A stretch of DNA of 40,795 nt from a virus (Duplodnaviria > Heunggongvirae > Uroviricota > Caudoviricetes), in IMG/VR virus record IMGVR_UViG_3300021399_000116, positions 1 to 40,795 of that record. One strand, given 5' to 3'. The translations under genes were made by a program, and so were the position numbers. The notes beneath the pieces were generated by a model that was not told the origin of the DNA, made no database searches, and saw nothing but the letters and a program-made list of their open reading frames with translations. Position 1 is the stretch's first letter. Every line of letters begins with the position of its first letter. Below are positions 6,589 to 27,821 of the stretch, one piece after another.

Positions 6589-7194
6589 ATGAAAAAGGAA
6601 AAACTAAGCCCTAATGAACTATCTATCAAAGACAGAGAAAAAGAAAATGCTCTTAGAAGAGATTTATTCTTTTTAAAACCATTACTCTTAGGAATTAACA
6701 ATGAGAAAGAAATTTCTTTTAAAGATGCTCAAATGAAAATTAGGGATACAGATAAATCAAGATTTAAAGGTTCGGTTTTAATAATGTCAATAAATGAATG
6801 CTATAGACATATTTCTATTACTGCACTTTCTAAATTTTACGATAGAAATACTAAATATACTTTAATTGCTACAGATACAATAATAAATTCTTGGTATAGT
6901 AATGATAATTCAGAGACAGTAAGTACAACTAATGAAATGCTAAAACCAGATGTTTTAATTATTTTTGGTGATGATTCATTTAAAAGAGATACATCTAAAA
7001 ATACAAAGAGAAAAGTAGCTATAGAAATAATGTCTACAAGAAAATCATTAAATAAAGATACTTGGCTTTTCTGTAGAGCTGCAGATATTGACAGAGTTTT
7101 CGATAAGTCTTATGGCTTTGAACCATATCTAGACTCTATAATTGATTTAGACAGAATAATAGAAGACTATAGAAATAAGGAGGGAAATAACTGA
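6589..7194 (+). CDS. possible degenerate DnaC/IstB-like helicase loader
   Basis: Immediately upstream of the helicase; PDVLIIFGDD Walker-B-like strand and MSTRKSLNKDTWLF; no Walker A; start moved to ATG 6589 after SD GGAGGAG. Confidence 0.4.
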   Translation: MKKEKLSPNELSIKDREKENALRRDLFFLKPLLLGINNEKEISFKDAQMKIRDTDKSRFKGSVLIMSINECYRHISITALSKFYDRNTKYTLIATDTIINSWYSNDNSETVSTTNEMLKPDVLIIFGDDSFKRDTSKNTKRKVAIEIMSTRKSLNKDTWLFCRAADIDRVFDKSYGFEPYLDSIIDLDRIIEDYRNKEGNN

Positions 7195-8612
7195 TGAATG
7201 AATCACCTATGTTAGATATAAATCCTCAGTTAGAAGTAATACTAAAGTCTATAGATTTAGAAGACTCATACCTTTTAGAGCCTATTCTTAATTCACCTGA
7301 AGTAGATAAAATAGACAAAATAGATATACAAAAATATTTAAAATTGATGGAGATTTCTGGTAGACCTAGTACTCTACTTTTAGAAAAAGAGATTCCTGGA
7401 AGAAACTTTGAATTAGAACCTATAGAAAAAGAACTTTTACCAGAGTACATAGAAATTTTCTTATTTAATAAGAAAAATCTTAATACTTCAAAGAGTTTAA
7501 TGGAATTAAGCACTAAAGTAAGAACTGAAGGACTAGATGAAAAAGTTATAAAGCAATTAACAGATTTAACTAAAGTAGACCATGTAAAAAGAGAGTTTGT
7601 AAATATTAGAGATACTTTTGTTGATAAATATGAAAATAGTGAGTATAATGCAGGAATACCTATTGGAATAAAATTTATAGATGATATGGTAGGTGGAATA
7701 CACAAAGGAGAAATATCAGTAGTAGCGGGATTTGCAGGTCATTGTAAAACTACAGTTGCTGTAAATGCTGCATATAGTGCACTTACAAGAGGTCAGAATG
7801 TTTTATATTTGTCATTAGAGGTAACTAAAGATAACATATATAGTGATTTTATATCTAGACACTCAAATTCCAAGAAATTTAAAATGAGAATACCTCACTA
7901 TGGATTAAAGAAAAAGAAATTAAAAGATGAAGAATGGGATTATTCTAAAAGTGTAATAATGCCAGATTTTAACACCTCATTAACAGGTAAAGTGTATATA
8001 ATAGATGAAACAGACTTAGATAATTACAAACCATATAGTTTACTAACTAAATTCAGAGAAGTAGATAAAATAGCTCAAAAAGAAACTGGTCATGGAATAG
8101 ATGTAGTAGTAATAGACCATATACAACTTTTAAAATTTGGAGATGGTTCGGCTAGTTCTAATGGAGAAGTTATAAATAGTTACATATCATTTTTTAGACA
8201 ACAATGCATGGACTGGTTAAATAGTAGTAGACAAGTTGCAATGGTAATTTTATCTCAAACTAATAGAACTGGTTATCTAGAAGCTAAAGCAAATAGTGGA
8301 AAATATGGAGCAACAGCTATGGCAGAAGCTAATGAATTAGAAAGAGCAGCCACTTTAATTTTAACAGTTTATACAGAGGCAGAAATGAAAGACATGGGAA
8401 TAGCAAAAATGCAAATCTTAAAATACAGAGATAATAGAAATGATGATGACCCTACAGAGGTATCTATAGATTTAGCATATTATTTATTTAGTGATAGTAT
8501 AGACGGAGCATCAACAATTAGCGCTGAAGTTTCAGAAGACTTATTAGAACAACTTAGTGAAAATGAAGACAATCCTGAAAGTTTAGACTGGTTATATAAT
8601 GGAGGTTTTTAA
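7194..8612 (+). CDS. replicative DNA helicase, SF4 (DnaB/gp41-like)
   Basis: VVAGFAGHCKT (H1), VLYLSLEV (H1a), VVVIDHIQLL (H2), MVILSQTNR (H3), ELERAATLIL and ILKYRD (H4). Confidence 0.92.
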   Translation: MNESPMLDINPQLEVILKSIDLEDSYLLEPILNSPEVDKIDKIDIQKYLKLMEISGRPSTLLLEKEIPGRNFELEPIEKELLPEYIEIFLFNKKNLNTSKSLMELSTKVRTEGLDEKVIKQLTDLTKVDHVKREFVNIRDTFVDKYENSEYNAGIPIGIKFIDDMVGGIHKGEISVVAGFAGHCKTTVAVNAAYSALTRGQNVLYLSLEVTKDNIYSDFISRHSNSKKFKMRIPHYGLKKKKLKDEEWDYSKSVIMPDFNTSLTGKVYIIDETDLDNYKPYSLLTKFREVDKIAQKETGHGIDVVVIDHIQLLKFGDGSASSNGEVINSYISFFRQQCMDWLNSSRQVAMVILSQTNRTGYLEAKANSGKYGATAMAEANELERAATLILTVYTEAEMKDMGIAKMQILKYRDNRNDDDPTEVSIDLAYYLFSDSIDGASTISAEVSEDLLEQLSENEDNPESLDWLYNGGF

Positions 8613-15720: not shown

Positions 15721-15742
15721 ATATATTATATTAGAGAATAAA
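15721..15742 (+). promoter_or_regulatory. candidate late-promoter motif ATATATTATATTA..AATAAA (copy 1)
   Basis: Same motif at 27079 and 36682, each upstream of a structural gene block. Confidence 0.45.
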
Positions 15743-15790: not shown

Positions 15791-16576
15791 ATGAAAAAAT
15801 TAGTACAAACTGGAGAAGACAATGAAGGAGTTTTCAATGTAATGGATGGTCTTAGTTTTGTTAGAGCCATTAATGATAATGCAACAGCATTAGGAACTGA
15901 AACTAAATTAGACTTAGAAATTTATAATACACCAGAAGCTATAGCTAAAGCTTTGAAAGAGCAAACTGGTAAGATAGGATTCCATACACCCGGAGGTCCT
16001 GATGATTTACCAACTTTTGAAGAAAAAGGAGCTCCTGTGGACTCACCATCAGAGCAAAAAGGAGGAGTAGCTCAAATTTATAATGAAGCATTAGGTGATA
16101 CAACAAAAAGCATTGCTATTACAACACCTCCTGATAAAACTACATACTATGAAGGAGAAGAATTAGACTTAACTGGAATGGTTGTAACTGCAACTGAAGA
16201 AGATGGAGATACTAAAGAAGTTACTGATTACACAGTTAATATAACTGAACCTTTAACTACTGCTGATACAGAATTTATAGTTAACTACAATGGAAAAACA
16301 GCTACTCAAGCTATCACTGTAAATGAAGATTTAATATCTAGCATTATAGTAGATACACCTCCTACTAAAGTTGAATATACTGAAGGAGAGACTTTTGACC
16401 CTACTGGTTTAGTTGTAAAGGTAGTTTATGATAGTGGTTCTTCAGCTGTTGTTAATAATGAAGATTTAACATTTAATCCAACTACAGATACTCCACTTAC
16501 TACAAGTGACACATTAGTTACAATTAGTTATAATGAATTAAATTGCACACAATCAATTACAGTAAATGAAGCTTAA
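15791..16576 (+). CDS. virion protein with two bacterial Ig-like (Big_3-type) domains; Hoc-like head decoration candidate
   Basis: Two repeats SIAITTPPDKTTYYEGEELDLTGMVVTA / SIIVDTPPTKVEYTEGETFDPTGLVVKV, each ending Q(A/S)ITVNE. Confidence 0.8.
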   Translation: MKKLVQTGEDNEGVFNVMDGLSFVRAINDNATALGTETKLDLEIYNTPEAIAKALKEQTGKIGFHTPGGPDDLPTFEEKGAPVDSPSEQKGGVAQIYNEALGDTTKSIAITTPPDKTTYYEGEELDLTGMVVTATEEDGDTKEVTDYTVNITEPLTTADTEFIVNYNGKTATQAITVNEDLISSIIVDTPPTKVEYTEGETFDPTGLVVKVVYDSGSSAVVNNEDLTFNPTTDTPLTTSDTLVTISYNELNCTQSITVNEA

Positions 16577-16603
16577 TAAGAAGAGATTTTTCTCTTCTTA
16601 TTT
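16575..16603 (+). terminator. intrinsic terminator
   Basis: AATAAGAAGAGA-TTTT-TCTCTTCTTATT. Confidence 0.75.
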
Positions 16604-16629
16604 ACAAAAATGAAATAATATGATATAAT
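16601..16629 (+). promoter_or_regulatory. sigma-A-like promoter with extended -10
   Basis: TTTACA-17 nt-TATAAT with TG at -15/-14. Confidence 0.7.
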
Positions 16630-16655
16630 GCTAATATTAGAAAGGAGAAACTTAA

Positions 16656-17888
16656 ATGAGCAAAATAAATAATACTTTTAAGAATATAAATGCTTCTATT
16701 TTTTCAGCTCTTAAAGAGTCTGCTGCTAATGAAGCTAGTGTGTGGAAAAATACTCTCAAAGAAACTGGAGAATGGGATGATGAAGACGATGAAATGGCTC
16801 TTTGGTTAGATGAATTAAGAAGTCAAGCTCAAGAATTAGCTAATCAAATAAATGGAGAAGTTAAATCTGTTACAGGGTTTGATGCTTATCAGGGACCAAG
16901 AGCTGTAGTACATTCACCTAAACACGGTGATGTAATAATGTGGTTTGACCAAGAAGATGATACTGGAAGAAGTTTTAATGTTAAAGTAGCACATGTAGGA
17001 TGGATTACTGGAGGAATAAATAATTTAGCTGATTTGTTAAATCAAGATACTATTCCAGAAAATGAAATTTTAAGTGAAGGTTCTATGGAGGATGAACTTG
17101 GAAAAGAAGCTGATGAATGGTTAGAAGACCAATATCGTAAATTAGAGAAAAAATATGGTCCTGATAAAGCACATGAAATGATTTATGGAAAATCAGACTC
17201 ATTAAAAGATAAAAATTCTTTCAAAGAAGGAGTACTTGTAGTAAATGATGATAAAGATATAGATAATACTGTTATTTTACTAAAAGATGTAAAAGCTCCT
17301 AATGGCTTAAGTGTAGTTTATTACAAAGATGTTTATTTTGTAGTAGATGAAAAAGATTTAAAAGAACTTGAAAAAAATAATATGTCAGTTTTACATCAAA
17401 GAGTTAGAGCTAGAAGTCTAGAAAGTCTTTTTAATGAGCTAAATGAATCTTTTATAAATAAAAGAAAGAAGCTTAAAGAATGGAAAGATGGAGGTAGCGC
17501 AAATCAATATGCTATTACATTCTATGTAAATTCTAATTTATCTGAAGAAGAACTAGAAGCTAGAACTCAAGAAGTAGTTTCAGCATTAGAAGATGATGAA
17601 ATGATAGAAAGACCTATAGAAGAAATAAAAGTAAAGAAAATCTCTGAAATACATAGAAGATTACCTGAAAGTTCTTTAAAAGAAGAAAGAGTAAATCAGA
17701 CAGTTAGAAAAGGTGATATATTTAGAAATAAAAACGGTGTTGCTTTAACTGTAACTGATGTAGATGATAAAAATCAAGTTACATATCATTTTTCTAGTAA
17801 TGGAGCAGTAGGAAAAGAGTATGATTGTATACCTTTAGAAAGTTTCTTACACATGGTAAATCAAAATGGTTACAGAAAGGAGATATAA
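16656..17888 (+). CDS. multi-domain putative internal head protein
   Basis: N-terminal ...SALKESAANE as in the capsid protein; internal ILSEG, LNESF, LKEW, SLKEE motifs separate small acidic domains. Confidence 0.65.
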   Translation: MSKINNTFKNINASIFSALKESAANEASVWKNTLKETGEWDDEDDEMALWLDELRSQAQELANQINGEVKSVTGFDAYQGPRAVVHSPKHGDVIMWFDQEDDTGRSFNVKVAHVGWITGGINNLADLLNQDTIPENEILSEGSMEDELGKEADEWLEDQYRKLEKKYGPDKAHEMIYGKSDSLKDKNSFKEGVLVVNDDKDIDNTVILLKDVKAPNGLSVVYYKDVYFVVDEKDLKELEKNNMSVLHQRVRARSLESLFNELNESFINKRKKLKEWKDGGSANQYAITFYVNSNLSEEELEARTQEVVSALEDDEMIERPIEEIKVKKISEIHRRLPESSLKEERVNQTVRKGDIFRNKNGVALTVTDVDDKNQVTYHFSSNGAVGKEYDCIPLESFLHMVNQNGYRKEI

Positions 17889-17890
17889 AC

Positions 17891-18130
17891 ATGAAAGTTT
17901 TAAATGAAAATGTATCTAAAAATATCATGAATAAATTAAATGAAGGATATAATGATGAGATAGGTGGAGACCCAGAAGATTATATCTCTGATTTGGAAGA
18001 ACTTAGAACTTATATAGATACTTTCGATATGAGCAAATTTGGAACTCATTTAGCATCTCAAATGGTTATGGATTTAGTTGAAACTATAAATAAGCAAATA
18101 GAATATACTAAAACAAAGTATGACTTGTAG
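17891..18130 (+). CDS. putative internal head protein, class A leader
   Basis: Start moved to ATG 17891 (SD AAGGAG): MKVLNENVSKNIMNKLNEG. Confidence 0.7.
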   Translation: MKVLNENVSKNIMNKLNEGYNDEIGGDPEDYISDLEELRTYIDTFDMSKFGTHLASQMVMDLVETINKQIEYTKTKYDL

Positions 18131-18139
18131 GAGGTAAAA

Positions 18140-18460
18140 ATGAAAATTTTAAGTGAAAATATTTCAAATAATATAATGAAAAAACTAAATGAAAGCTGGT
18201 CTAATGAATTAGGCATAGATTTAACTTCAGATGAAGAATCAACTTTAGATGATATGATGAATAAAGACTATGATTTAGAAATTGATGACTTAGATGATGA
18301 AGAAAAAGCAAAATATATAGATGTAGCAAACTCTATTAGAAAATTAGGACCAGAAGAAGCATATATAGACGTAGAAAAAGAAGTCAAAGAAAAAGCTAAA
18401 GAAAATCATTTAGATGCAGATTTATTGGCTTATATCTATTTGAGCCAATATAAACACTAG
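18140..18460 (+). CDS. putative internal head protein, class A leader
   Basis: MKILSENISNNIMKKLNES followed by an acidic domain. Confidence 0.7.
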   Translation: MKILSENISNNIMKKLNESWSNELGIDLTSDEESTLDDMMNKDYDLEIDDLDDEEKAKYIDVANSIRKLGPEEAYIDVEKEVKEKAKENHLDADLLAYIYLSQYKH

Positions 18461-18474
18461 AGGAGGTGAAAATA

Positions 18475-19158
18475 ATGCCAATAAAGTTAAATGAGTTAAT
18501 GAACTCTGGTAGTATTTTAGAGTCTAAGAAATCATCTAGACCTGGAGTTCTTAAAACTATAATTGCTAAAATTACAGATTACTTACCTAATAGAAATGGT
18601 AGAGTTTATCCCAGAAAAATCTGGGAAAAGGCTTGTAATTCTGACCTAGTAAAAGAGCAAGTAGCTTGTAACTGTTTCTTCGGAGAAGCTAATCACCCTT
18701 TTGATGATAGAATGGACATAGATTTAACTAATGTATCTCATGCTATATCTAAGTTAGATATTAGAGATGATGGAGTTTATGGTACTATAGATATATTAGA
18801 CACACCTTCAGGAGGTATAATAAATAAACTATTAGACTATGGTTCTAAAATAGGAATATCTTCTAGAGGATGTGGTAGCTTAGATGATACTACTAATACA
18901 GTACAAGATGACTATCAACTATTTGCATTTGATATAGTAGCTAGACCTTCTGTAGCTGCAGCCAGATTAACTGAAAGTGAAGAACTTATGAAACAAGGCA
19001 AAGTTGTTATGACAGAGGCTGAAGTTAAATCAGTTTTAAATAATTATAGGAATAATGTCTTGAATGAATCAGGTTACATTCAGAGGGAAAAAGAGAGTGT
19101 AGCTAATAATATTATTAGTAGACTTATAAAAGAGTCTCAAGAATTAAATAGGAGGTAA
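18475..19158 (+). CDS. prohead protease, T4 gp21-like
   Basis: NRNGRVYP, GEANHP, VSH, GISSRGCGS, FDIVARPS; start moved to ATG 18475 after SD GGAGGTG. Confidence 0.92.
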   Translation: MPIKLNELMNSGSILESKKSSRPGVLKTIIAKITDYLPNRNGRVYPRKIWEKACNSDLVKEQVACNCFFGEANHPFDDRMDIDLTNVSHAISKLDIRDDGVYGTIDILDTPSGGIINKLLDYGSKIGISSRGCGSLDDTTNTVQDDYQLFAFDIVARPSVAAARLTESEELMKQGKVVMTEAEVKSVLNNYRNNVLNESGYIQREKESVANNIISRLIKESQELNRR

Positions 19159-19160
19159 AG

Positions 19161-19544
19161 ATGAAAATATTAAATGAAAATGTTTCTAGAGATATAATGA
19201 AAATATTGAATGAAAGTGCTAGAAATAAATGGCAAATTCCAGAAAATTTAAAAGTAGTAGACATAAATATGACTAATGACCCACATGGAACTTGTATGGG
19301 AAAGTTTAATGATGGAACTTGGTTTGTATCTAGTAATGGAAGTATAGGAATTTATGATGCAGACCCTGCAGGCGCTTATGGTTTTAATGATGAATATGAT
19401 GAAGATTATTATGCAGATAATGTAGATGAAATAATTGAAGATTTTGATAACAATCATTTACTAGCTGGGTTTGAAGCTGATTTTAATAACTATGAAAATT
19501 CTAGTTATAACAAATTGCAAAAATTAATCTATAAAAATAAATAA
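19161..19544 (+). CDS. putative internal head protein, class A leader
   Basis: MKILNENVSRDIMKILNES. Confidence 0.7.
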   Translation: MKILNENVSRDIMKILNESARNKWQIPENLKVVDINMTNDPHGTCMGKFNDGTWFVSSNGSIGIYDADPAGAYGFNDEYDEDYYADNVDEIIEDFDNNHLLAGFEADFNNYENSSYNKLQKLIYKNK

Positions 19545-19573
19545 TTACTACATTAGTAAAGGAAGTATGACAG

Positions 19574-20072
19574 ATGAGTAGTAACAAGTCTGCGAAAGAA
19601 GCTCTAGAAAGAAGATATGGAGCTGAATGTTTTATAGAAAAGTTACACCTTAGAAAAGACGAAAAACCTAGAAAATATACTTCTAAACGGGCAGAAGAAA
19701 AAGATGAAGCAATTAACATATCATCATATAAGAGAGAAAAGAAATGGAGGTAAAGCAACTATAGAAAATGGAGCTTTACTTTCGGCAGAAAATCACTCTT
19801 GGTTTCATAAACAAAGTGAAGCTGCTCAAGGATATATGAATGCTATGTTTCAGGAATACAAAAGACAAGTAGATGAAAGTACAGAGTGTATAGTAAAATT
19901 TGTAGATGATTTAGAGACAGATTATGAAATTAAAGTTACAGACATAGCCTTTGATGAGAAAGGTAGACTACTTTCAGAAGAAAAGAAAGAAAAATATAAC
20001 AGAGCAGCTAAAAAGAGAGAAGATAGAAAATTAGCTGAAGAATATTATAAAGGAGAGGATATAGAACTATGA
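19574..20072 (+). CDS. HNH endonuclease, interrupted by a +1 shift at 19688
   Basis: ATG 19574 frame MSSNKSAKEALERRYGAECFIEKLHL...KYTSK joins, after skipping C19688, GQKKKMKQLTYHHIREKRNGGKATIENGALLSAENHSWFH (HH..GG...N...H). Confidence 0.75.
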
Positions 20073-20749
20073 GAAGAACTATTAGACTATTAGAAAAACA
20101 AGAAGTTTTAAATCCTAAGTTGTTCAAAAATCAAAAGCTTATTCCAGAAGTAAGAGACCATTTACTGGCTATAGCTCAAGAGTTTTTAGACCATTTTACA
20201 ATAGAAATATTAGTAGATGATATAGATATAATAGGTTCTAATGCAGGATATAATTATAAGTCTAAATCTGACATAGATTTACATGTTGTAACAGATTTTA
20301 CTCAATATCCAGCTGATGTAAATATCATAGATGAATTATTCAATGCTAAGAAAAATAATTTTAATAATAATTATGATATTACTATTAAGGACATGGAAGT
20401 AGAACTTTATATAGAAGATAAAAATCATCCAGCAGAAACTAACGGTAGATATTCTATAAAAACTGATGAGTGGTTACAAGAACCTACTTATATAGAAGAA
20501 CCTCCTGTAAATAAAGATTTAGTAGAAGAGTGGACAAATAAAATAGAAGAGACTGTTAAAACTAAAGATTTAACTAAGATTGACTCTTTAATAGATGAAA
20601 TATGGGATTTAAGAAAATTAGACGTTAAAGATTATGGCTTTACAGGAGAATTTAATTTAGTGTTTAAAGCTTTAAGAGCGAGAGGACTATTAGATAAATT
20701 AAGAAAAACTAAGATGGAGGTAACTTCTGAAGAATTAAGTTTAAAATAG
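20069..20749 (+). CDS. Pol-beta-superfamily nucleotidyltransferase with class C leader
   Basis: IIGSNAGYNYKSKSDIDLHVV (GS...DxD) and third acid in DMEVELYIED; leader MRRTIRLLEKQ. Confidence 0.85.
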   Translation: MRRTIRLLEKQEVLNPKLFKNQKLIPEVRDHLLAIAQEFLDHFTIEILVDDIDIIGSNAGYNYKSKSDIDLHVVTDFTQYPADVNIIDELFNAKKNNFNNNYDITIKDMEVELYIEDKNHPAETNGRYSIKTDEWLQEPTYIEEPPVNKDLVEEWTNKIEETVKTKDLTKIDSLIDEIWDLRKLDVKDYGFTGEFNLVFKALRARGLLDKLRKTKMEVTSEELSLK

Positions 20750-20767
20750 TAGAAAGGAGAGAATTAG

Positions 20768-21931
20768 ATGAAACATTTAACAGAAAAATCAAGTTCATTG
20801 AAATTATTTCAAAAATTAAATGAGGGTACTAAATACAAAAGAATTTCAAGATTTAATGAATTTGATAATGGCTATGTTTTTCATAGCTGGAATGAGTGGA
20901 CAGATGAAGAAGCTGAAGAACAAGCAAGACAAGCTTCTATAAAAGACCCTACAGATGTTTATTATGTACAATATGATGATGTAATGAATCCTAATTCTGG
21001 AATATACTGGTATAAAGGAAACTCATATTCTTATGAAAAAGTTAATGAACTTCGTAAGAAAGATAAAGAAATAAATTTGGAAAAACAAAAACAAAAAATT
21101 TTAACAAATATTTTTGCACTTTATCCTGATATCTCAGAAGAAGATGAAGATTATTTAATCAGTCTAGATTTACTTTCTTTAAAAGATGAAATCAAAAATA
21201 GAGGATGGACAGATGCTTTAGAAGAAGGTTTAAAAGAAGATTCATTAAATTCAGGGATTATTCAACTTTATATGAATACTTGGGGTAATTATAATGAACG
21301 TGGAGCAGATGTAGAAAATATAAATGGTGGTTGGATGGATATAGACCAAGCAAAAGAATTTTTAGAAGCTCATAAAGATGAAGAACCATTTATTAATGAT
21401 ACAGAGAATGTTCCAGGAGATTTAGATATTGATGAATATACTAACCCTTGGGAAGCTATAGAAGAATTAGAATATATTGAAAACTCAGATGATAAAGATG
21501 CTCTTATAGCTATCATAGAAAGTACTGGAGATTTTGAAAATGCAAAAGAAATTTATGAAAGTGGTGATTATACATTTTTCCCTGGAGTAGAAGATGATGA
21601 GGAACTAGGAAGGGCTTATGTAGAATTAGTTGGTGGATTAGATGGAGTTAATAATGTAGGAAACTATATTGATGAAGAAGCTTACAAAGAAAGTTGGAGA
21701 GAAGCAGCTGAACAAGATATTAGAGAGAATAACCCAGATTTAGATGAAAATAGTGATGAATTTGAAGATGAAGTAAATAACTGGCTAAATGGAGTTGCTA
21801 TGGAAGAGTTAGAAAATGAAAAAGAAGCTGGTAATGATTTATCAGAATATTTTGACTATGAGGCTTTTGGTAGAGATTTAGATTTTGAAGGATATTTCTT
21901 CGCATCTACTGGAGCTATTCAAACTAATTAG
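20768..21931 (+). CDS. ardA: ArdA-like antirestriction protein (C-terminal ~225 aa) fused behind a class B leader and extra domains
   Basis: LYMNTWGNYNE...GGW, IDEYTNPWE, DDEELGRAYVELVGGL, YFDYEAFGRDLDFEGYF; very acidic. Confidence 0.85.
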   Translation: MKHLTEKSSSLKLFQKLNEGTKYKRISRFNEFDNGYVFHSWNEWTDEEAEEQARQASIKDPTDVYYVQYDDVMNPNSGIYWYKGNSYSYEKVNELRKKDKEINLEKQKQKILTNIFALYPDISEEDEDYLISLDLLSLKDEIKNRGWTDALEEGLKEDSLNSGIIQLYMNTWGNYNERGADVENINGGWMDIDQAKEFLEAHKDEEPFINDTENVPGDLDIDEYTNPWEAIEELEYIENSDDKDALIAIIESTGDFENAKEIYESGDYTFFPGVEDDEELGRAYVELVGGLDGVNNVGNYIDEEAYKESWREAAEQDIRENNPDLDENSDEFEDEVNNWLNGVAMEELENEKEAGNDLSEYFDYEAFGRDLDFEGYFFASTGAIQTN

Positions 21932-21944
21932 AAAGGAGCATTAA

Positions 21945-22247
21945 ATGAAAATCTTAAATGAAAATGTTTCTAAAAATATAATAAATATATTAAAAGAAGC
22001 AGAAGATGTTAATATAGAAGATGAACTACAAGTAAATCTTGAAGAACTAGCATACTATAATAATTGGTCAGAGAATAGATTAGATAATTATATTAAGAGA
22101 ATAGAAAAAAAGTATAATATAAGATGTGGTTATACATGGCAAGTAGGTCCTAAAGAAAACTTAATAGACTGGTTAAAATCTTTGAAGTTTGAGGAACCAA
22201 TAGAAGAAATATATAAAGCTGCTAAAGCAGGTGACTTAAGTTTTTAA
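21945..22247 (+). CDS. putative internal head protein, class A leader
   Basis: MKILNENVSKNIINILKEA. Confidence 0.7.
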   Translation: MKILNENVSKNIINILKEAEDVNIEDELQVNLEELAYYNNWSENRLDNYIKRIEKKYNIRCGYTWQVGPKENLIDWLKSLKFEEPIEEIYKAAKAGDLSF

Positions 22248-22267
22248 ATAAGAAAGGAGATAATGTT

Positions 22268-22981
22268 ATGAAACATTTAACAGAAAAATCAAATACATTA
22301 AAACTTTTTAATAAATTAAATGAAGGAGTAGATAAAATTGCTCAAGCTAAAGAAATTATGGCTTCTTTAGGTATAAATGAAATATATTTCTCAGATGAAC
22401 ACAAACCTAGTAGAGAGTATGATACTAGAATACCTAATGCATATAAGTATGTAGATTTTTATGGTTATGCTAGTATAAGTCATAATACTCTCGGTAATTT
22501 TTATATCTCATATAAAATTGGAGGTAGAAAAAATATAATAGATGCTTCTGGATTTCCTTGGGAAGGAATAGAGAAAGATACTACAGAAGAACAAAAATCT
22601 TTTATAGAGAATAATTACGAAGCTTTATCTGAGTTATTTATACTTTGCAGAGGACAAGTCAGTGTTTCATTAAATGAAAGCATAGAACCTAGCAATTTAG
22701 AATTAGATGAAAATGGACTTCCAGTTTTAGATGCTCCATATTATATGCAATGGTTAGATGATAATGATTGGGATGAAGGTATTTATTATATAACAAGCGC
22801 ACATCCATATAATGATGCAGATTATAGTTATGCTTATTCTAAAGAACCAGACTATACAGGATATTGGAATGTATACAATTCAAACAGAAAGTTAGCTGGA
22901 ACAGTAGAAGGTTATGAAGAAGCAGTAAAATTGATGAAAGAGTTAGACAAAAATGTAGAACCTAGAATGATGTATAATTAA
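22268..22981 (+). CDS. putative internal head protein, class B leader, two domains
   Basis: MKHLTEKSNTLKLFNKLNEG; internal VSLNES before an acidic, aromatic second domain. Confidence 0.7.
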   Translation: MKHLTEKSNTLKLFNKLNEGVDKIAQAKEIMASLGINEIYFSDEHKPSREYDTRIPNAYKYVDFYGYASISHNTLGNFYISYKIGGRKNIIDASGFPWEGIEKDTTEEQKSFIENNYEALSELFILCRGQVSVSLNESIEPSNLELDENGLPVLDAPYYMQWLDDNDWDEGIYYITSAHPYNDADYSYAYSKEPDYTGYWNVYNSNRKLAGTVEGYEEAVKLMKELDKNVEPRMMYN

Positions 22982-22995
22982 AGGAGTAAAATAAG

Positions 22996-23370
22996 ATGAA
23001 AAGAACTATTAAGTTAGTAGAATGTGCCAATTTCAAAGTATTTAAAGATGAAAAAGAAATAGAAGATGAGTTTGATGAGAAGGCATATAAATTCTATGAC
23101 AATGAGATAGACCATAATATAAATTATATAGGAGATATGAAGGCTGGTAATTGTAAACAAAACTCATATTTAGCTAAAGAAAATGACCCTGAAGATAATC
23201 CAGAAATTTATTTAGGTTATATAGTAATGAAAGACAAATCAGGAAAACTATGTGGAATAAGACATTATTTTAATGTAAACAATGGATTAGTAATGGAACA
23301 TACACCTGTTAGAGATACTCAGTTATATAAGTCAGGAGAATTACAATATTATATAGGAGAAGAAGTATGA
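22996..23370 (+). CDS. putative internal head protein, class C leader; possible Cys-His (papain/transglutaminase-fold) enzyme
   Basis: MKRTIKLVEC; AGNCKQNS...LGYI...RHYFNV...VMEHTP. Confidence 0.55.
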   Translation: MKRTIKLVECANFKVFKDEKEIEDEFDEKAYKFYDNEIDHNINYIGDMKAGNCKQNSYLAKENDPEDNPEIYLGYIVMKDKSGKLCGIRHYFNVNNGLVMEHTPVRDTQLYKSGELQYYIGEEV

Positions 23371-23895
23371 TTACAGTTTTTACAGGACCAATGTTTTCAG
23401 GAAAAAGTAGTAAATTGATAGAAGTATATTCAAATAAATTTTATAATGGTAGAGTCTTAGCTTTTAAACCCGCTAAAGACAAAAGAGATAAAACTAAAAT
23501 AAAGTGTAGACAATACTCTTTAGAAATAGAAGCTACAGTAATTTCTACTTTTGAAGATATTTTAAAACATTTACAGCCTGATTGTAAAGTTATTTTAATT
23601 GATGAAGCTCAATTTCTAACTGGAGACCCTAGAATTTTATTAGATTTATCTCTATTAGATAATTATGAAATTTATGTAGCTGGATTAGCTTTAGACTCAG
23701 AGCAAAGAGGTTTTGGAAAATTTCCAGAGTTAATTACTCTAGCAGATAAAGTAGAAAAAGTTTATGCTGATTGTTATTATTGTGGCAGAGAAGCTGAATA
23801 TACTAGATATTTAGAAAAGAAAGAAGAACAAATTTTAGTTCGGTTCTAAAGGTTACATTCCAGTGTGTAGACACTGTTTAAAGAAAGAAATTTAA
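23367..23895 (+). CDS. tdk: thymidine kinase (type II), interrupted near the C-terminus by a +1 shift at 23841
   Basis: TGPMFSGKS, ILIDEAQF, VAGLALDSEQRGFG, CYYCG; skipping C23841 restores QILVGSKGYIPVCRHCL with the second Zn-binding CxxC. Confidence 0.9.
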
Positions 23896-23913
23896 TCTAT
23901 ATTTAGAGAAACT

Positions 23914-23945
23914 AAGCTTCAGAATGACTTCTGAGGCTTTTTCTA
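23914..23945 (+). terminator. intrinsic terminator, CTCAGA family copy 2
   Basis: AAGCTTCAGAA-TGAC-TTCTGAGGCTT plus TTT. Confidence 0.75.
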
Positions 23946-24069
23946 TGCATTCTAATAGAATATTATATCTACGCGCTAGTAAAACTTGCACTTTTTACCT
24001 TTTATTTATATACAATATTAGAAGAAGCTATATCGAGTTAGCTTCAAAAATTTAGAAAGGAGAATGAAA

Positions 24070-25476
24070 ATGATAATTGACAGTTTAGCATTAAAAGAAG
24101 CAGATGCACTTATCAAAAAACATGAGTCTATGATAAATGCAGTAGATAATGCTTTAAAAGAATCAGCATCATTTGAAGCTATGGATTCTAACAAGAAAGC
24201 TAATTTAGCTATAATGTTAGAAAATGTTAGCAATCAAATCGAAGCTAAAGCTCCAAGAGTATTAACAGAGTCTGGAACACAAGTTGTAGACATTGCTAAG
24301 AAAATGGAATACTTAAATTTAACAGCTGCTATTATGCCAACATTAGTTGCTGAAGATATAGTTTCTGTACAAGCTCAAAAACAAAAAGCTGCTACAGCAT
24401 TCTATATAAAATATGAATATGGTTCTAACAGAGGAGCTATAAAAAGAGGAGATAGAATTTCTGATTTTATGCAAGTAGGACCAGATGCAGATAAAATACC
24501 AGCTGCATTCAATTATTCAGCAGAAACTATTGATGGAGAAGAAGTTGTACAAGATGAAACAACAGGAAACTTTGTTTTAGCTTGGAAACCAGTTGTTCCT
24601 GGAACAGTTAACTTCTTAGTAGGTGGAGCTGAATACAAAGATAATGGTGAACAAGCCATTGTTGATGATTCAAATGCTGAAGTTGGAACTATCGACTACA
24701 CTACAGGTGTTGTTGAATTTACAAGTAAAGTTGAAATAGATGATGCTACAGTAAACTATGCTCAAGATTTAACAATTGCTCCAGTAGATGTACCAGAAGT
24801 TAAAATGGAAGTTAAAGAAGTAGTTATGGTTGCAAAACCAAGAAAATTAAGAGGAGGATTTTCTTTGGATGCTGCTTTTGATTTAAGTGCTACTCAAAAC
24901 ATTGACCTTCAATCATTACTTCAAAATTTAAAAGTTGATGAAATAAGAAGTGAAATTGATGGAGAAATAATGAACGACTTATTAAATACAGGAACAGGAA
25001 TGCAAGTTACATTCAACATTGCAGTACCTTTCGGTATTACTAAAGTTGACCATTATGATTCATTAATGCAAACACTTATCCAAGGTGCTAACAAAGTTAG
25101 AACAAAAACTAGAAGAATTACTCCTAACATCTTAATAGTAGGTGAAACAGGAGCAAATATTCTAGAGTCTATGACTAAGTTCAAACCAGCTGCATCTTTA
25201 GGAAGTGCTGGACCTCACATTCTTGGAACATTAGCTAACAGATTCTTATGTGTATACTCTCCATACTATCCAGCTGATAAAGCTGTTATAGCATACAGAG
25301 GAGACGTTATAATTGATACTGGATATATTTATGGTCCTTATATGCCAATTATAGCTACTCAATACATAATGGGAGCTGACTTTTATGGTGACCAAGGTGT
25401 GGCTACAAGTTATTCAAAGAAACTTGTATGTAAAGACTTCTATTGCAACTTAACATTTACAAATGTTACAGTTTAA
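24070..25476 (+). CDS. major capsid protein, T4 gp23-like
   Basis: DIVSVQAQKQKAATAFYIKYEYG (cf. gp23 GVQPMxGPTGxVFAxRxxY), KPRKLRGGFSLDAAFDL, EIRSEIDGEI, GTLANRF, GYIYGPYMP; propeptide ending VLTES; ATG 24070 fits SD AAAGGAG better than 24064. Confidence 0.9.
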   Translation: MIIDSLALKEADALIKKHESMINAVDNALKESASFEAMDSNKKANLAIMLENVSNQIEAKAPRVLTESGTQVVDIAKKMEYLNLTAAIMPTLVAEDIVSVQAQKQKAATAFYIKYEYGSNRGAIKRGDRISDFMQVGPDADKIPAAFNYSAETIDGEEVVQDETTGNFVLAWKPVVPGTVNFLVGGAEYKDNGEQAIVDDSNAEVGTIDYTTGVVEFTSKVEIDDATVNYAQDLTIAPVDVPEVKMEVKEVVMVAKPRKLRGGFSLDAAFDLSATQNIDLQSLLQNLKVDEIRSEIDGEIMNDLLNTGTGMQVTFNIAVPFGITKVDHYDSLMQTLIQGANKVRTKTRRITPNILIVGETGANILESMTKFKPAASLGSAGPHILGTLANRFLCVYSPYYPADKAVIAYRGDVIIDTGYIYGPYMPIIATQYIMGADFYGDQGVATSYSKKLVCKDFYCNLTFTNVTV

Positions 25477-25516
25477 TAGTTAGAGTGCCAACCATTTAAG
25501 AATATATTATTGTTGA

Positions 25517-25565
25517 TAAAATAGAGGAAAGTAAGTTTTAAATGACTTATACTTCCTCTATTTTT
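25517..25565 (+). terminator. terminator after the capsid gene
   Basis: AAAATAGAGGAA...AAGT-loop-ACTT...TTCCTCTATTTT imperfect long hairpin. Confidence 0.7.
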
Positions 25566-25591
25566 ATGTTAAACTTTACCATATATGCCTA

Positions 25592-25620
25592 TTTACATAT
25601 TTCATTAAATATAATATAAT
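25592..25620 (+). promoter_or_regulatory. sigma-A-like promoter of the free-standing endonuclease
   Basis: TTTACA-17 nt-TATAAT. Confidence 0.65.
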
Positions 25621-25645
25621 ATAATATAAATAGGAGATGATTGTT

Positions 25646-27022
25646 ATGAGAAAAATAGAAGTAGATAAAGATTTATTATATCACTATTATATTGAAGAAA
25701 ATTTATCTATACAACAAACAGCAGATAAAATGAACATAGGAGCCAGAACTATACAAAGACACATAGATAAAAATAATTTTCATAAAACTCAAGAGCAAAT
25801 TAAATCTCAAAGAGAAGATGTAATGTTAAAGAAATATGGTGTAATAAATGCTTATCAAAGTGAAGAGATTAAAAAGAAAATTAAGACTAGGACTAAAGAA
25901 ACTCTTCAAAGAAAGTATGGTGTTTCTCATAATTTTCAATTAGAAAGTTTTAGAGATAAAATTTCTAAAAAGAAAAAAGAAAATTACTTTATTCATCTTG
26001 AAATAATAGAAAGTAAATATACCTTATTAAAATGGATAGAACAATTCAAAGAGGAGAAAAAGAGAAAACCTACATATATTGACCTACAGCTGTATTTGGG
26101 ATGTGCTTATACTACAGTATGTGCTATTATTGGTAGGTTTAAAGTTAAAAGTTACTTTAAGGTGATTCATAGTTATTTAGAATTTAGTGTAGAAGAATTT
26201 ATAAAAACATTGAATGTTAAATACATAAAGCATAATAGAAAAGAGATAAAGCCTTTAGAGTTAGATTTCTATTTTCCAGAGTATAAAGTTGCAATAGAAG
26301 TTAATGACATAGCAAGTCATAATTCTACTCTATCATATATGAAAAATAGTACACCTATTAACAAAGATTATCATGTGAATAAATCTAGACTATGTGAAGA
26401 AAAAGGAATAAGACTTATACATATATGGGAATATGAGTGGAACAATGAGAGACAAAAACCTATTTTAGAAAACATAATCAAAAATGCTTTAGGAATTAAT
26501 ACTAATAAAATATACGCTCGTAAGTTAGACATAGAAATTAGAGAGTCTAAATTAATGAGAGAATTTTTTGATACTAATAATATACAAGGTTTTAGAAGTG
26601 GGAAATTTGCTATATGTTTAGTAGATAAAGTTACTAAAGAAATTTATATGTCTTATATGATAGGCTCAGCATTTTTTGGGAAAGGAAAATATGAATATGA
26701 AGTTATTCGAGGGGCTACAAAGCTAGGATACACTGTAGTTGGTGGAGCTAGTAAAATTTGGAAATACTTTATAGATAATTATAATCCTCAAAGTTGTGTA
26801 TACTATATAGATTATAACTATTTTAATGGTAATAGTTTACCTTATTTAGGATTAAAATACATTACTACACAATTTAGTTATAAAAATTGGTGGGTAAAAG
26901 AGCAAGAAATAAAGAATAGAGAGCCAATGAGACACAAAGAAATAAAAGAAAAATATAAAAGCGGAGAAGTACTTCAAATCTATAATGCAGGGACTAAAGT
27001 TTATGTTTATGAAAATTTATAA
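25646..27022 (+). CDS. free-standing Hef-like / PD-(D/E)XK (Vsr/DUF559-type) homing endonuclease
   Basis: N-terminal HTH, KYGV repeats, ELDFYFPEYKVAIEVND..H, IRLIHIWEYEW, KIYARK, VVGGASKIWKYF; probable start ATG 25646 (SD GGAG). Confidence 0.75.
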   Translation: MRKIEVDKDLLYHYYIEENLSIQQTADKMNIGARTIQRHIDKNNFHKTQEQIKSQREDVMLKKYGVINAYQSEEIKKKIKTRTKETLQRKYGVSHNFQLESFRDKISKKKKENYFIHLEIIESKYTLLKWIEQFKEEKKRKPTYIDLQLYLGCAYTTVCAIIGRFKVKSYFKVIHSYLEFSVEEFIKTLNVKYIKHNRKEIKPLELDFYFPEYKVAIEVNDIASHNSTLSYMKNSTPINKDYHVNKSRLCEEKGIRLIHIWEYEWNNERQKPILENIIKNALGINTNKIYARKLDIEIRESKLMREFFDTNNIQGFRSGKFAICLVDKVTKEIYMSYMIGSAFFGKGKYEYEVIRGATKLGYTVVGGASKIWKYFIDNYNPQSCVYYIDYNYFNGNSLPYLGLKYITTQFSYKNWWVKEQEIKNREPMRHKEIKEKYKSGEVLQIYNAGTKVYVYENL

Positions 27023-27036
27023 AATATACCTAATAG

Positions 27037-27070
27037 AGTCTTCAGATTTAATTCTGGAGGCTTTTATTTT
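27037..27070 (+). terminator. intrinsic terminator, CTCAGA family copy 3
   Basis: AGTCTTCAGA-TTTAAT-TCTGGAGGCT plus T tract. Confidence 0.75.
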
Positions 27071-27078
27071 GTCATAAT

Positions 27079-27101
27079 ATATATTATATTAAGCAAATAA
27101 A
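27079..27101 (+). promoter_or_regulatory. candidate late-promoter motif (copy 2)
   Basis: ATATATTATATTAAGCAAATAAA. Confidence 0.45.
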
Positions 27102-27120
27102 TTTGAAAGGAGCTAAAATT

Positions 27121-27807
27121 ATGAGTACATTTAATGCAAGATTAAGTTTTAAAGGAGAAGGTGAATTAACAGTTACTTTACCAGTAATAGGACAAATTTC
27201 TATTTGGAATGGTAGAGATATTTATCTTAGAGGAGCTACTACAGAAATTATAGAAACTTTAAGACAATATAGAAGTATGCAACTAGAGCACACTTTAAAT
27301 GGAGAAATAAGAGGATGTTATAGAGTAATAGAAGTTGGAGCTATAGATAAAATACCTCAAAATGCTTTCAGGCCAGTAGCTGCTCCAAGAACAGAGCATA
27401 TAGCTAGTTTAAAAGCACAGATGTTGAAAGCTAATGAATTAACTCACTTTGATGAAGAAGTTTTAGAAAAAGCAAAGAAAGAAGAACCTAAGGTAGATAA
27501 TAAAGAGGAGGAAACTGAGAAAGTCGAAGAAGTTACTGAAGAAACTACTAAGGAGACTACTGAAAACACTGATAATACTGATGTTACTAATAATGTCAGT
27601 GATGATATAACAGAGAATGAAGAAAATACTAAACCAGAACTTTCTATGAATATAGAAGAAATCACTGTATCTGTAGGTAATCTAAGAGGTAAGAAAATCG
27701 GTGAATTAAATGCTAAAGAACTTAGAAAAGTTCTTAGATATTCTAAATCTGAAGTAGAGAGAAAAGCTGCAGAAACTGCTCTAAAAATAAAATTTCCTCA
27801 GAAATAG
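27121..27807 (+). CDS. hypothetical head-region protein with acidic E/T/N-rich linker
   Basis: Start moved to ATG 27121 (SD AAAGGAG); EEVTEETTKETTENTDNTD linker; small basic C-terminal domain. Confidence 0.75.
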   Translation: MSTFNARLSFKGEGELTVTLPVIGQISIWNGRDIYLRGATTEIIETLRQYRSMQLEHTLNGEIRGCYRVIEVGAIDKIPQNAFRPVAAPRTEHIASLKAQMLKANELTHFDEEVLEKAKKEEPKVDNKEEETEKVEEVTEETTKETTENTDNTDVTNNVSDDITENEENTKPELSMNIEEITVSVGNLRGKKIGELNAKELRKVLRYSKSEVERKAAETALKIKFPQK

Positions 27808-27821
27808 GAGGTAGTATATAA

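Follow-up and report, generated by a model that had tools for sequence, protein, structure and literature searches.

An ArdA DNA mimic in the head gene cluster of a T4-like phage, proposed as virion cargo behind a putative prohead-targeting leader

Introduction

Why would a phage keep the gene for an ArdA antirestriction protein among the genes that build its head? The ArdA proteins of conjugative elements are established DNA mimics, thought to act through early expression, and the canonical protein is a homodimer that mimics ~42 bp of DNA. The gene that raises the question, open reading frame (ORF) 20768-21931 on the + strand, lies in the IMG/VR virus record IMGVR_UViG_3300021399_000116, of which we analysed positions 1 to 40,795 (hereafter the window). 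This window covers the initial 40.8 kb of one 131,968-bp contig with 28.8% G+C, which reads, from its gene content, as a T4-like myophage. A previous sequence-only reading of the window had described the product as an ArdA domain engineered as virion cargo, and had argued that its location makes sense only if the protein is packaged and co-injected with the DNA. Here we describe a leader-bearing precursor whose C-terminal part is ArdA, and we propose that this part would be freed by the prohead protease and would travel with the DNA.

Results

The C-terminal part of the protein is ArdA

ORF 20768-21931 is an uninterrupted frame of 387 amino acids (aa) with zero CGG codons, and its ATG stands 6 nt downstream of a ribosome-binding site, AAAGGAGAG (20753-20761, +), read directly from the sequence. 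The C-terminal part of the product matches the Pfam family ArdA (PF07275) at E 1.5e-9 and 39.1 bits (gathering score, 27), and the 387-aa protein also matches PHROG 2059, 'anti-restriction protein', at 2.4e-9. Both hallmarks named in the sequence-only reading, NTWGNYNE and YFDYEAFGRDL, are present, the former within YMNTWGNYNE from residue 169 and the latter at residues 361-371, and homology starts at about residue 165 (nucleotide 21260), close to the ~21256 given there. When a profile built from 62 members of the subfamily was compared with solved structures, the sole real match was Tn916 ArdA (chain 2W82, E 1.3e-6).

The same structure was recovered from the predicted fold. For alignment and folding the N-terminal half and the ArdA half were treated separately, and the AlphaFold model (AF2) of residues 150-387 reached a mean predicted local distance difference test score (pLDDT) of 92.7 and a predicted template modelling score of 0.81, its first 11 residues alone being disordered. 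Foldseek against the PDB returned 2W82 with probability 1.0 (E 9e-5) and no second match below E 1, while VIA-align superposed 152 of 162 residues on 2W82 with Z 9.4 and a root-mean-square deviation of 3.5 Å (runner-up Z 4.6). According to the model and both comparisons, the elongated three-domain ArdA fold is retained. Because the hidden Markov model (HMM) score, the subfamily profile, the AlphaFold model and the fold matches to 2W82 agree, the ArdA assignment is secure, and the earlier identification holds for both family and fold.

The phage subfamily is, at the same time, merely 20-28% identical to Tn916 ArdA. Its third domain carries an insertion of ~58 residues (303-360, net charge -18; 21674-21847, +), at which the profile alignment to 2W82 splits; it falls between NYID and Y-x-A-x-GRDL, which are contiguous in 2W82, and it models as a helical hairpin (AF2, model helices 162-172 and 181-205). 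The extra acidic insertion that had been read from the letters is therefore real. The predicted mature ArdA fragment (residues 158-387, 230 aa; 21239-21928, +), whose fold begins at about residue 165, has a net charge of -55 and a pI of ~4.05, values that describe its composition and are not a surface map.

A head-module leader and a predicted cleavage junction precede ArdA

The ArdA gene sits between the genes for a gp21-type prohead serine protease (18466-19158, +; Pfam Peptidase_S77, E 1.7e-18) and a gp23-type major capsid protein (24064-25476, +; Pfam Gp23, E 2.8e-46), which confirms the placement in the head cluster. Residues 1-19 of its product (20768-20824, +) form what had been called a class B leader, and the same leader is indeed found on ORF 22268. 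It is basic (net +2) and poorly ordered (pLDDT <50 in the AF2 model), with one L-T-E ending at residue 6 and one L-N-E at residue 19, and we propose that it is a capsid-targeting propeptide.

A regex search over the whole 132-kb genome found 11 leader-bearing genes in three classes, all of them within 17.9-30.9 kb (17891-30876, +) around the protease and capsid genes and zero elsewhere. Five belong to class A (starts 17891, 18140, 19161, 21945 and 29803, +; M-K-I-L-N-E-N-V-S...L-N-E), two to class B (starts 20768 and 22268, +) and four to class C (starts 20069, 22996, 28502 and 28821, +; M-R-R-T-I-K-L-I-E). In each class L-x-E ends at fixed positions of the leader, namely 6 and 18/19 in classes A and B, and 9 in class C. 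The motif recurs at the N-terminus of the protease (L-N-E ending at residue 10 and I-L-E ending at residue 19) and in the capsid propeptide (L-K-E ending at residues 12 and 33, and L-T-E|S ending at residue 69). Copies of one leader differ at synonymous sites, and selection therefore acts on the peptide; conservation of the leader as an RNA element was rejected on the same grounds.

In T4, gp21 cleaves after L/I-X-E, and the capsid-targeting sequence of IPIII, its first 10 residues, suffices for packaging; foreign proteins fused to this sequence, green fluorescent protein among them, enter the capsid in 20-200 copies and are then delivered to cells (PMC9026906). The arrangement of leaders seen here matches this established pattern.

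Between the leader and ArdA lies a stretch that the sequence-only reading had left out of its description: the middle 140 residues of the precursor are a separate module. Its first part, which we call domain X (residues 20-100; 20825-21067, +), is a small alpha+beta module modelled at pLDDT 80-90 (AF2) and resembles an internal stretch of 555-669-aa proteins bearing LPD11 (PF18824), a domain of polyvalent proteins, at 45-58% identity in alignment A3 and 55-67% by local BLASTP. Searches with domain X gave zero significant fold matches in the PDB, nothing usable from ESM Atlas and, in the AlphaFold DB, a weak resemblance to small DUF2188-like proteins only. Domain X is a mobile module. Its conserved core reads T-E-G-T...K-R-I...E-F-D-N-G...D-P-T-D-V-Y-Y-V-Q-Y-D-D, and LPD11 proteins that bear it fill the slot 5' of the prohead protease on phage contigs of up to ~190 kb (for example L008, 8001-9902).

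Domain X is followed by a helical linker (residues 101-150; 21068-21217, +; AF2 helices 89-118, 124-132, 135-145 and 148-155) and then by the junction L-E-E-G-L-K-E (residues 151-157; 21218-21238, +), with cleavage predicted after E157. The LEEGLKE|D junction of the sequence-only reading is thus located at residues 151-158, and residues 151-157 are disordered in both AF2 models.

The junction is conserved between unrelated upstream parts and a constant ArdA

A word-indexed search yielded 162 relatives, every one of them metagenomic and many carried by contigs of 90-220 kb, and an exhaustive profile search gave 967 matches at <=1e-3. Of these, 80 cluster representatives fell below 1e-30, and many of the 80 have ArdA at the extreme C-terminus, in proteins of up to 1,560 residues. 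What stands upstream is unrelated between lineages, and consists either of short leaders (for example M-S-N-T-R-K-L-F-E-S-I-Q-N-N-L-N-E) or of one to several extra domains. Even so, [LIVM]-x-E ends 6-12 residues before Y-M-N-T-W in 51 of 64 non-redundant upstream contexts, versus 20 of 64 in a control that used the next interval of equal width (Fisher p 5e-8). Of the 51 relatives that bear the motif, 46 have Leu at P3; Lys, Thr or Asn stands at P2, and Asp, Ser or Ala at P1'. Because the L-x-E site is both conserved and disordered, and joins unrelated N-terminal parts to a constant C-terminal ArdA domain, it looks like a processing site.

Position is conserved as well. In six of seven related contigs (L001, L004, L006, L007, L009 and L010) an ArdA homologue lies a few genes from Peptidase_S77 and/or Gp23: two genes after both in L001 (223 kb), one or two genes 5' of both in L006 and L007 (205 kb and 160 kb), and, in L004 (147 kb), flanked by gp13 and a 913-residue leader-bearing protein on one side and by the tail tube gene on the other. 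On the 120-kb contig L003 ArdA belongs to a five-gene run that shares another leader, ...N-L-F-E-S-F...N-L-N-E, and in L008 the slot 5' of the protease is occupied by a protein with LPD11 and domain X instead of ArdA.

Two close relatives, L009 and L010, keep the order class C gene, class B ArdA gene, class B gene, and carry 16 and 13 leader genes, respectively, between protease and capsid. Identity over the flanks is 88-90%, but the segment between the leader and the L-K-E-D junction, including the helical linker, is absent or replaced. L009 also has a class A leader ahead of a SprT-like metallopeptidase domain (7077-7862; Pfam E 7.5e-11), a domain type known from ArdC and polyvalent proteins. 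Mapped onto a maximum-likelihood tree of 111 ArdA domains, the upstream architectures require no fewer than 19 changes, or at least 10 when only well-supported branches are counted; ArdA is therefore a stable module of a fast-shuffling, head-linked cassette system.

The ArdA gene lies in a unit with the protease gene

The ArdA gene is part of a tightly packed same-strand unit, 15791-23849, that includes the protease gene. The unit is preceded by the 12-mer TATATTATATTA (15722-15733, +) and closed by a terminator-like hairpin with an 11-pair stem followed by a T run (23914-23939, +). The 12-mer, usually extended by AGAGAA, has six copies on the + strand of the genome (window 15722, 27080 and 36683; genome 89769, 98383 and 129887), where composition predicts fewer than one per strand, and each copy stands 5' of a ribosome-binding site and a gene. 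The operons behind five of them contain structural or lysis genes: one has the head-tail adaptor gene, one the baseplate hub gene, one an amidase gene, and two have genes for virion structural proteins. Behind the copy at 15722, ahead of the head unit, the first two genes lack a family match. On this sequence pattern we regard TATATTATATTA as a candidate phage late promoter, and we infer from the layout of the unit that the ArdA gene would be expressed late, jointly with the protease gene.

A proposed route from prohead to host

Taken with the analogy to T4, these results suggest the following mechanism. The gene would encode a three-part precursor made of a 19-residue targeting leader, an effector-like module with its helical linker, and a C-terminal ArdA DNA mimic, and this precursor would be synthesised together with the head proteins. 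The leader would bring it into the assembling prohead, like the capsid-targeting sequence of T4 internal proteins, and the gp21-type protease of the phage would then cleave after the L-x-E motifs at E6, E19 and E157. Cleavage would liberate the strongly acidic, 230-residue ArdA fragment, to be retained in the head and ejected with the DNA at infection. ArdA would thus be on hand ahead of any phage gene transcription, and would fill the DNA-binding groove of host type I restriction-modification (RM) enzymes.

We consider this entire route, from targeting to the prohead through protease cutting to injection, to be probable. The reading of ArdA as packaged cargo is supported by the HMM and fold matches, the shared leader, the junction and the head location; for the targeting, cleavage, head retention, ejection and type I RM target themselves, it stays a prediction. 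The comparative data also favour it, as L-x-E is kept across unrelated upstream parts, ArdA stands beside protease or capsid genes in distant relatives, and other cargo-like proteins occupy the same slot.

Several observations weigh against packaging and injection. L/I-x-E is a short motif, and the 387-aa protein contains 13 of them. Among the 111 homologues seven are leaderless, including P0089, which occupies the same slot beside the protease; head-module position is therefore not always coupled to a leader, and the claim that the location makes sense only if the protein is packaged was too strong. (Fusion of P0089 to its upstream ORF through CGG +1 recoding was rejected, as it has its own Shine-Dalgarno site and ATG.) T4 internal proteins are small, basic and DNA-associated, whereas the leader proteins here are all acidic and ArdA is extremely so; a fragment of net charge -55 may be badly retained alongside packed DNA, although an elongated DNA-like protein might traverse the DNA channel while folded. 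A near-consensus sigma-70-like site at 16601-16629 could permit early transcription. The scan for such sites found 114, compared with 107 in shuffled sequence, and both this site and an internal one at 21267-21295 were set aside as evidence because their frequency is no higher than in shuffles. No cultured relative with a comparable gene set was found: megablast of 18000-26000 and tblastn of the 387-aa protein against 50,697 phage records gave zero matches, and in Listeria phage LIS04, one of the nearest isolates by capsid protein, the protease gene directly abuts the capsid gene, without an array of leader genes. Finally, if the phage DNA is hypermodified, restriction of the classical kind may be less important, and another DNA-binding defence could then be the target.

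Three rival explanations are retained. The leader proteins, ArdA included, might be core or scaffold-like parts of the prohead that the protease cuts and that are lost, by expulsion or degradation, ahead of DNA packaging or in its course, in which case the ArdA fold would be a DNA-like placeholder and nothing would be injected. The acidity of all 11 leader proteins (pI 4.1-5.7) and the many I/L-x-E sites inside the ArdA part agree with such a role, as does the fate of the T4 core proteins gp22, gp67 and gp68, which are cut to fragments that exit the head (PMC9026906). We nevertheless judge it unlikely: close relatives differ strongly in their gene set (leader genes number 11, 16 and 13, and cassettes are swapped), as fits accessory cargo rather than essential assembly parts, the ArdA domain retains both the conserved family motifs and the full fold, and other conflict-type domains (SprT-like, LPD11) stand behind the same leaders in relatives. 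The leaderless homologues in the same slot would be easier to understand if ArdA were made late and remained cytoplasmic, there to shield progeny DNA, for example, or to act after release by lysis, with leader and junction serving protease-dependent activation, translation or partner binding. This seems quite unlikely, given that a restriction inhibitor is most useful at DNA entry, that the leader is restricted to the head module, that synonymous differences between its copies exclude an RNA element, and that the motif fits the specificity of the co-encoded protease family, which is active inside proheads (PMC9026906).

The remaining alternative accepts packaging and injection and changes only the target, so that the long phage ArdA subfamily would hit a DNA-binding defence other than type I RM (BREX-like, type III or modification-dependent systems, for instance). 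In T4, each of the three internal proteins blocks GmrSD enzymes, which are modification-dependent (PMC12373910), and the low identity to Tn916 ArdA and the large third-domain insertion leave room for a shift of this kind; since the family's conserved motifs and all three domains of the fold are kept, we hold it to be very unlikely.

If injection of ArdA as protease-cut cargo is right, it may be one case among many. Tentatively, and with rather less confidence than for ArdA itself, we suggest that this phage lineage runs a hypervariable 'cargo library', in which at least a dozen unrelated accessory proteins per genome would carry interchangeable prohead-targeting leaders, some of them as mini-polyproteins cut at L-x-E into co-injected effectors. 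ArdA, domain X, the SprT-like peptidase, a nucleotidyltransferase-like protein and the LPD11 proteins could be its members.

Relation to known systems

Protection of incoming DNA at the moment of entry has precedents. DarA and DarB of P1 (and Hdf, DdrA/B) are packaged in the head and shield incoming DNA from type I restriction; they are unrelated proteins that protect DNA in cis without DNA mimicry and follow another assembly pathway. T7 Ocr is a phage DNA mimic that blocks type I RM at the very onset of infection, but it is not a virion protein, its gene being the first to be transcribed as the DNA slowly enters, and its fold is unrelated. Tn916 ArdA (Orf18; 2W82, PF07275) shares with the phage protein its family, its fold, the C-terminal Y-x-D-Y-x-A-x-G-R-D-L and a very acidic composition. 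The canonical protein, however, stands alone at ~165 aa, has nothing ahead of the fold (the domain start aligns with chain residue 2) and is expressed early from conjugative elements, whereas the phage domain has 223-230 aa with the 58-residue insertion, is the C-terminal part of a leader-bearing 387-aa precursor and is encoded among head genes.

The nearest parallel for the delivery route is the T4 system of IPI, IPII, IPIII and gp21. Both phages encode a gp21-family protease and short N-terminal propeptides ending in L/I-x-E on otherwise unrelated proteins, and both have a hypervariable set of accessory genes and an anti-restriction function delivered with the DNA, which here is proposed (PMC9026906, PMC12373910). 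Ip1-3 of T4 are injected inhibitors of type IV GmrSD enzymes, and T-even phages have hypervariable internal-protein loci (cited in PMC12373910), which the head-linked ArdA cassettes may be said to recall. The two systems differ in several respects: there is zero sequence similarity, the cargo here is acidic and not basic, there are three classes of leader (9 to 19 residues) with genes between protease and capsid, ArdA at least is a multi-module precursor with an internal (predicted) cut site, and the expected target is type I RM rather than type IV GmrSD.

ArdA has also been listed among the polyvalent-protein domains in Firmicutes, where it is tied to ArdC-N, and phage polyvalent proteins have been predicted to be packaged (Iyer et al. 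2017, PMC5512222). The likeness lies in multi-domain conflict proteins predicted to travel with DNA (PMC5512222), and in the recurrence of domain X in LPD11-bearing proteins. Polyvalent proteins combine at least two conflict-type domains and share them combinatorially; likewise, domain X and ArdA stand in one polypeptide here and upstream modules are swapped among relatives. Polyvalent proteins are often >1000 aa with a built-in peptidase or ArdC-N, whereas the present protein has 387 aa and Pfam finds neither in it. Polyvalent ArdA proteins are moreover linked to ArdC-N, occur mostly in conjugative elements and are processed by zincin peptidases (PMC5512222), while for the phage protein we propose processing in trans by the prohead protease at L-x-E, and targeting by a T4-like leader. 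The finding combines known kinds, namely ArdA, the T4 targeting leader and polyvalent proteins, and our literature search found no paper in which ArdA is linked to processing by a prohead protease or to a capsid-targeting leader.

ArdA and Ocr are textbook DNA mimics, both thought to work through first expression, and a packaged ArdA would, if true, close the interval between DNA entry and that expression. It would join two hitherto separate ideas, the T4 capsid-targeting leader and DNA-mimic anti-restriction proteins, and would make ArdA the first restriction-inhibiting DNA mimic shown to arrive as a virion protein. The order leader, L-x-E, effector would also provide a readable signature for spotting injected anti-defence proteins in uncultured phages. 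As the family is large, with many of its 80 representatives carrying ArdA at the C-terminus of long multi-domain proteins, such a rule would annotate hundreds of metagenomic genes, and it would flag new effector modules, domain X among them. Phage-capsid protein delivery could, in addition, draw on the natural leaders and junctions as parts.

Genome setting and neighbouring genes

In the window, genes for a DnaB-type helicase, a DNA polymerase and a SNF2-type helicase are followed by those for the prohead protease and the major capsid protein, and 3' of the capsid gene by those for the head-tail adaptor, tail sheath, tail tube, baseplate hub and tape measure. By capsid protein the nearest isolates are Listeria, Bacillus and Streptococcus phages, at only 34-37% identity.

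Just upstream of the ArdA gene lies a class C leader gene (20069-20749) that matches PHROG 36119 (E 4e-38). Its product shows a G-S...D-x-D pattern and sub-threshold Pfam matches to nucleotidyltransferase families (E 0.04-0.05), and may, judging from this pattern, be a second packaged effector. Proteins resembling its N-terminus adjoin or lie near ArdA or LPD11 genes in L007, L008, L009 and L010.

Further upstream (19574-20072) an HNH endonuclease is split over two overlapping ORFs, 19574-19753 and 19704-20072, which fuse to a stop-free 165-residue protein if an in-frame CGGG at codon 39 is read as one glycine; the split is also seen in L009 and L010. The final gene of the head-gene unit, just 5' of the terminator and the capsid gene, is one for thymidine kinase (23367-23849; PHROG 592, E 1e-28), an odd location for a gene of nucleotide metabolism. 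Directly 3' of the major capsid gene is a gene for a 461-residue homing endonuclease (25637-27022; PHROG 3339, E 7e-64), which is preceded by a near-consensus sigma-70-like site.

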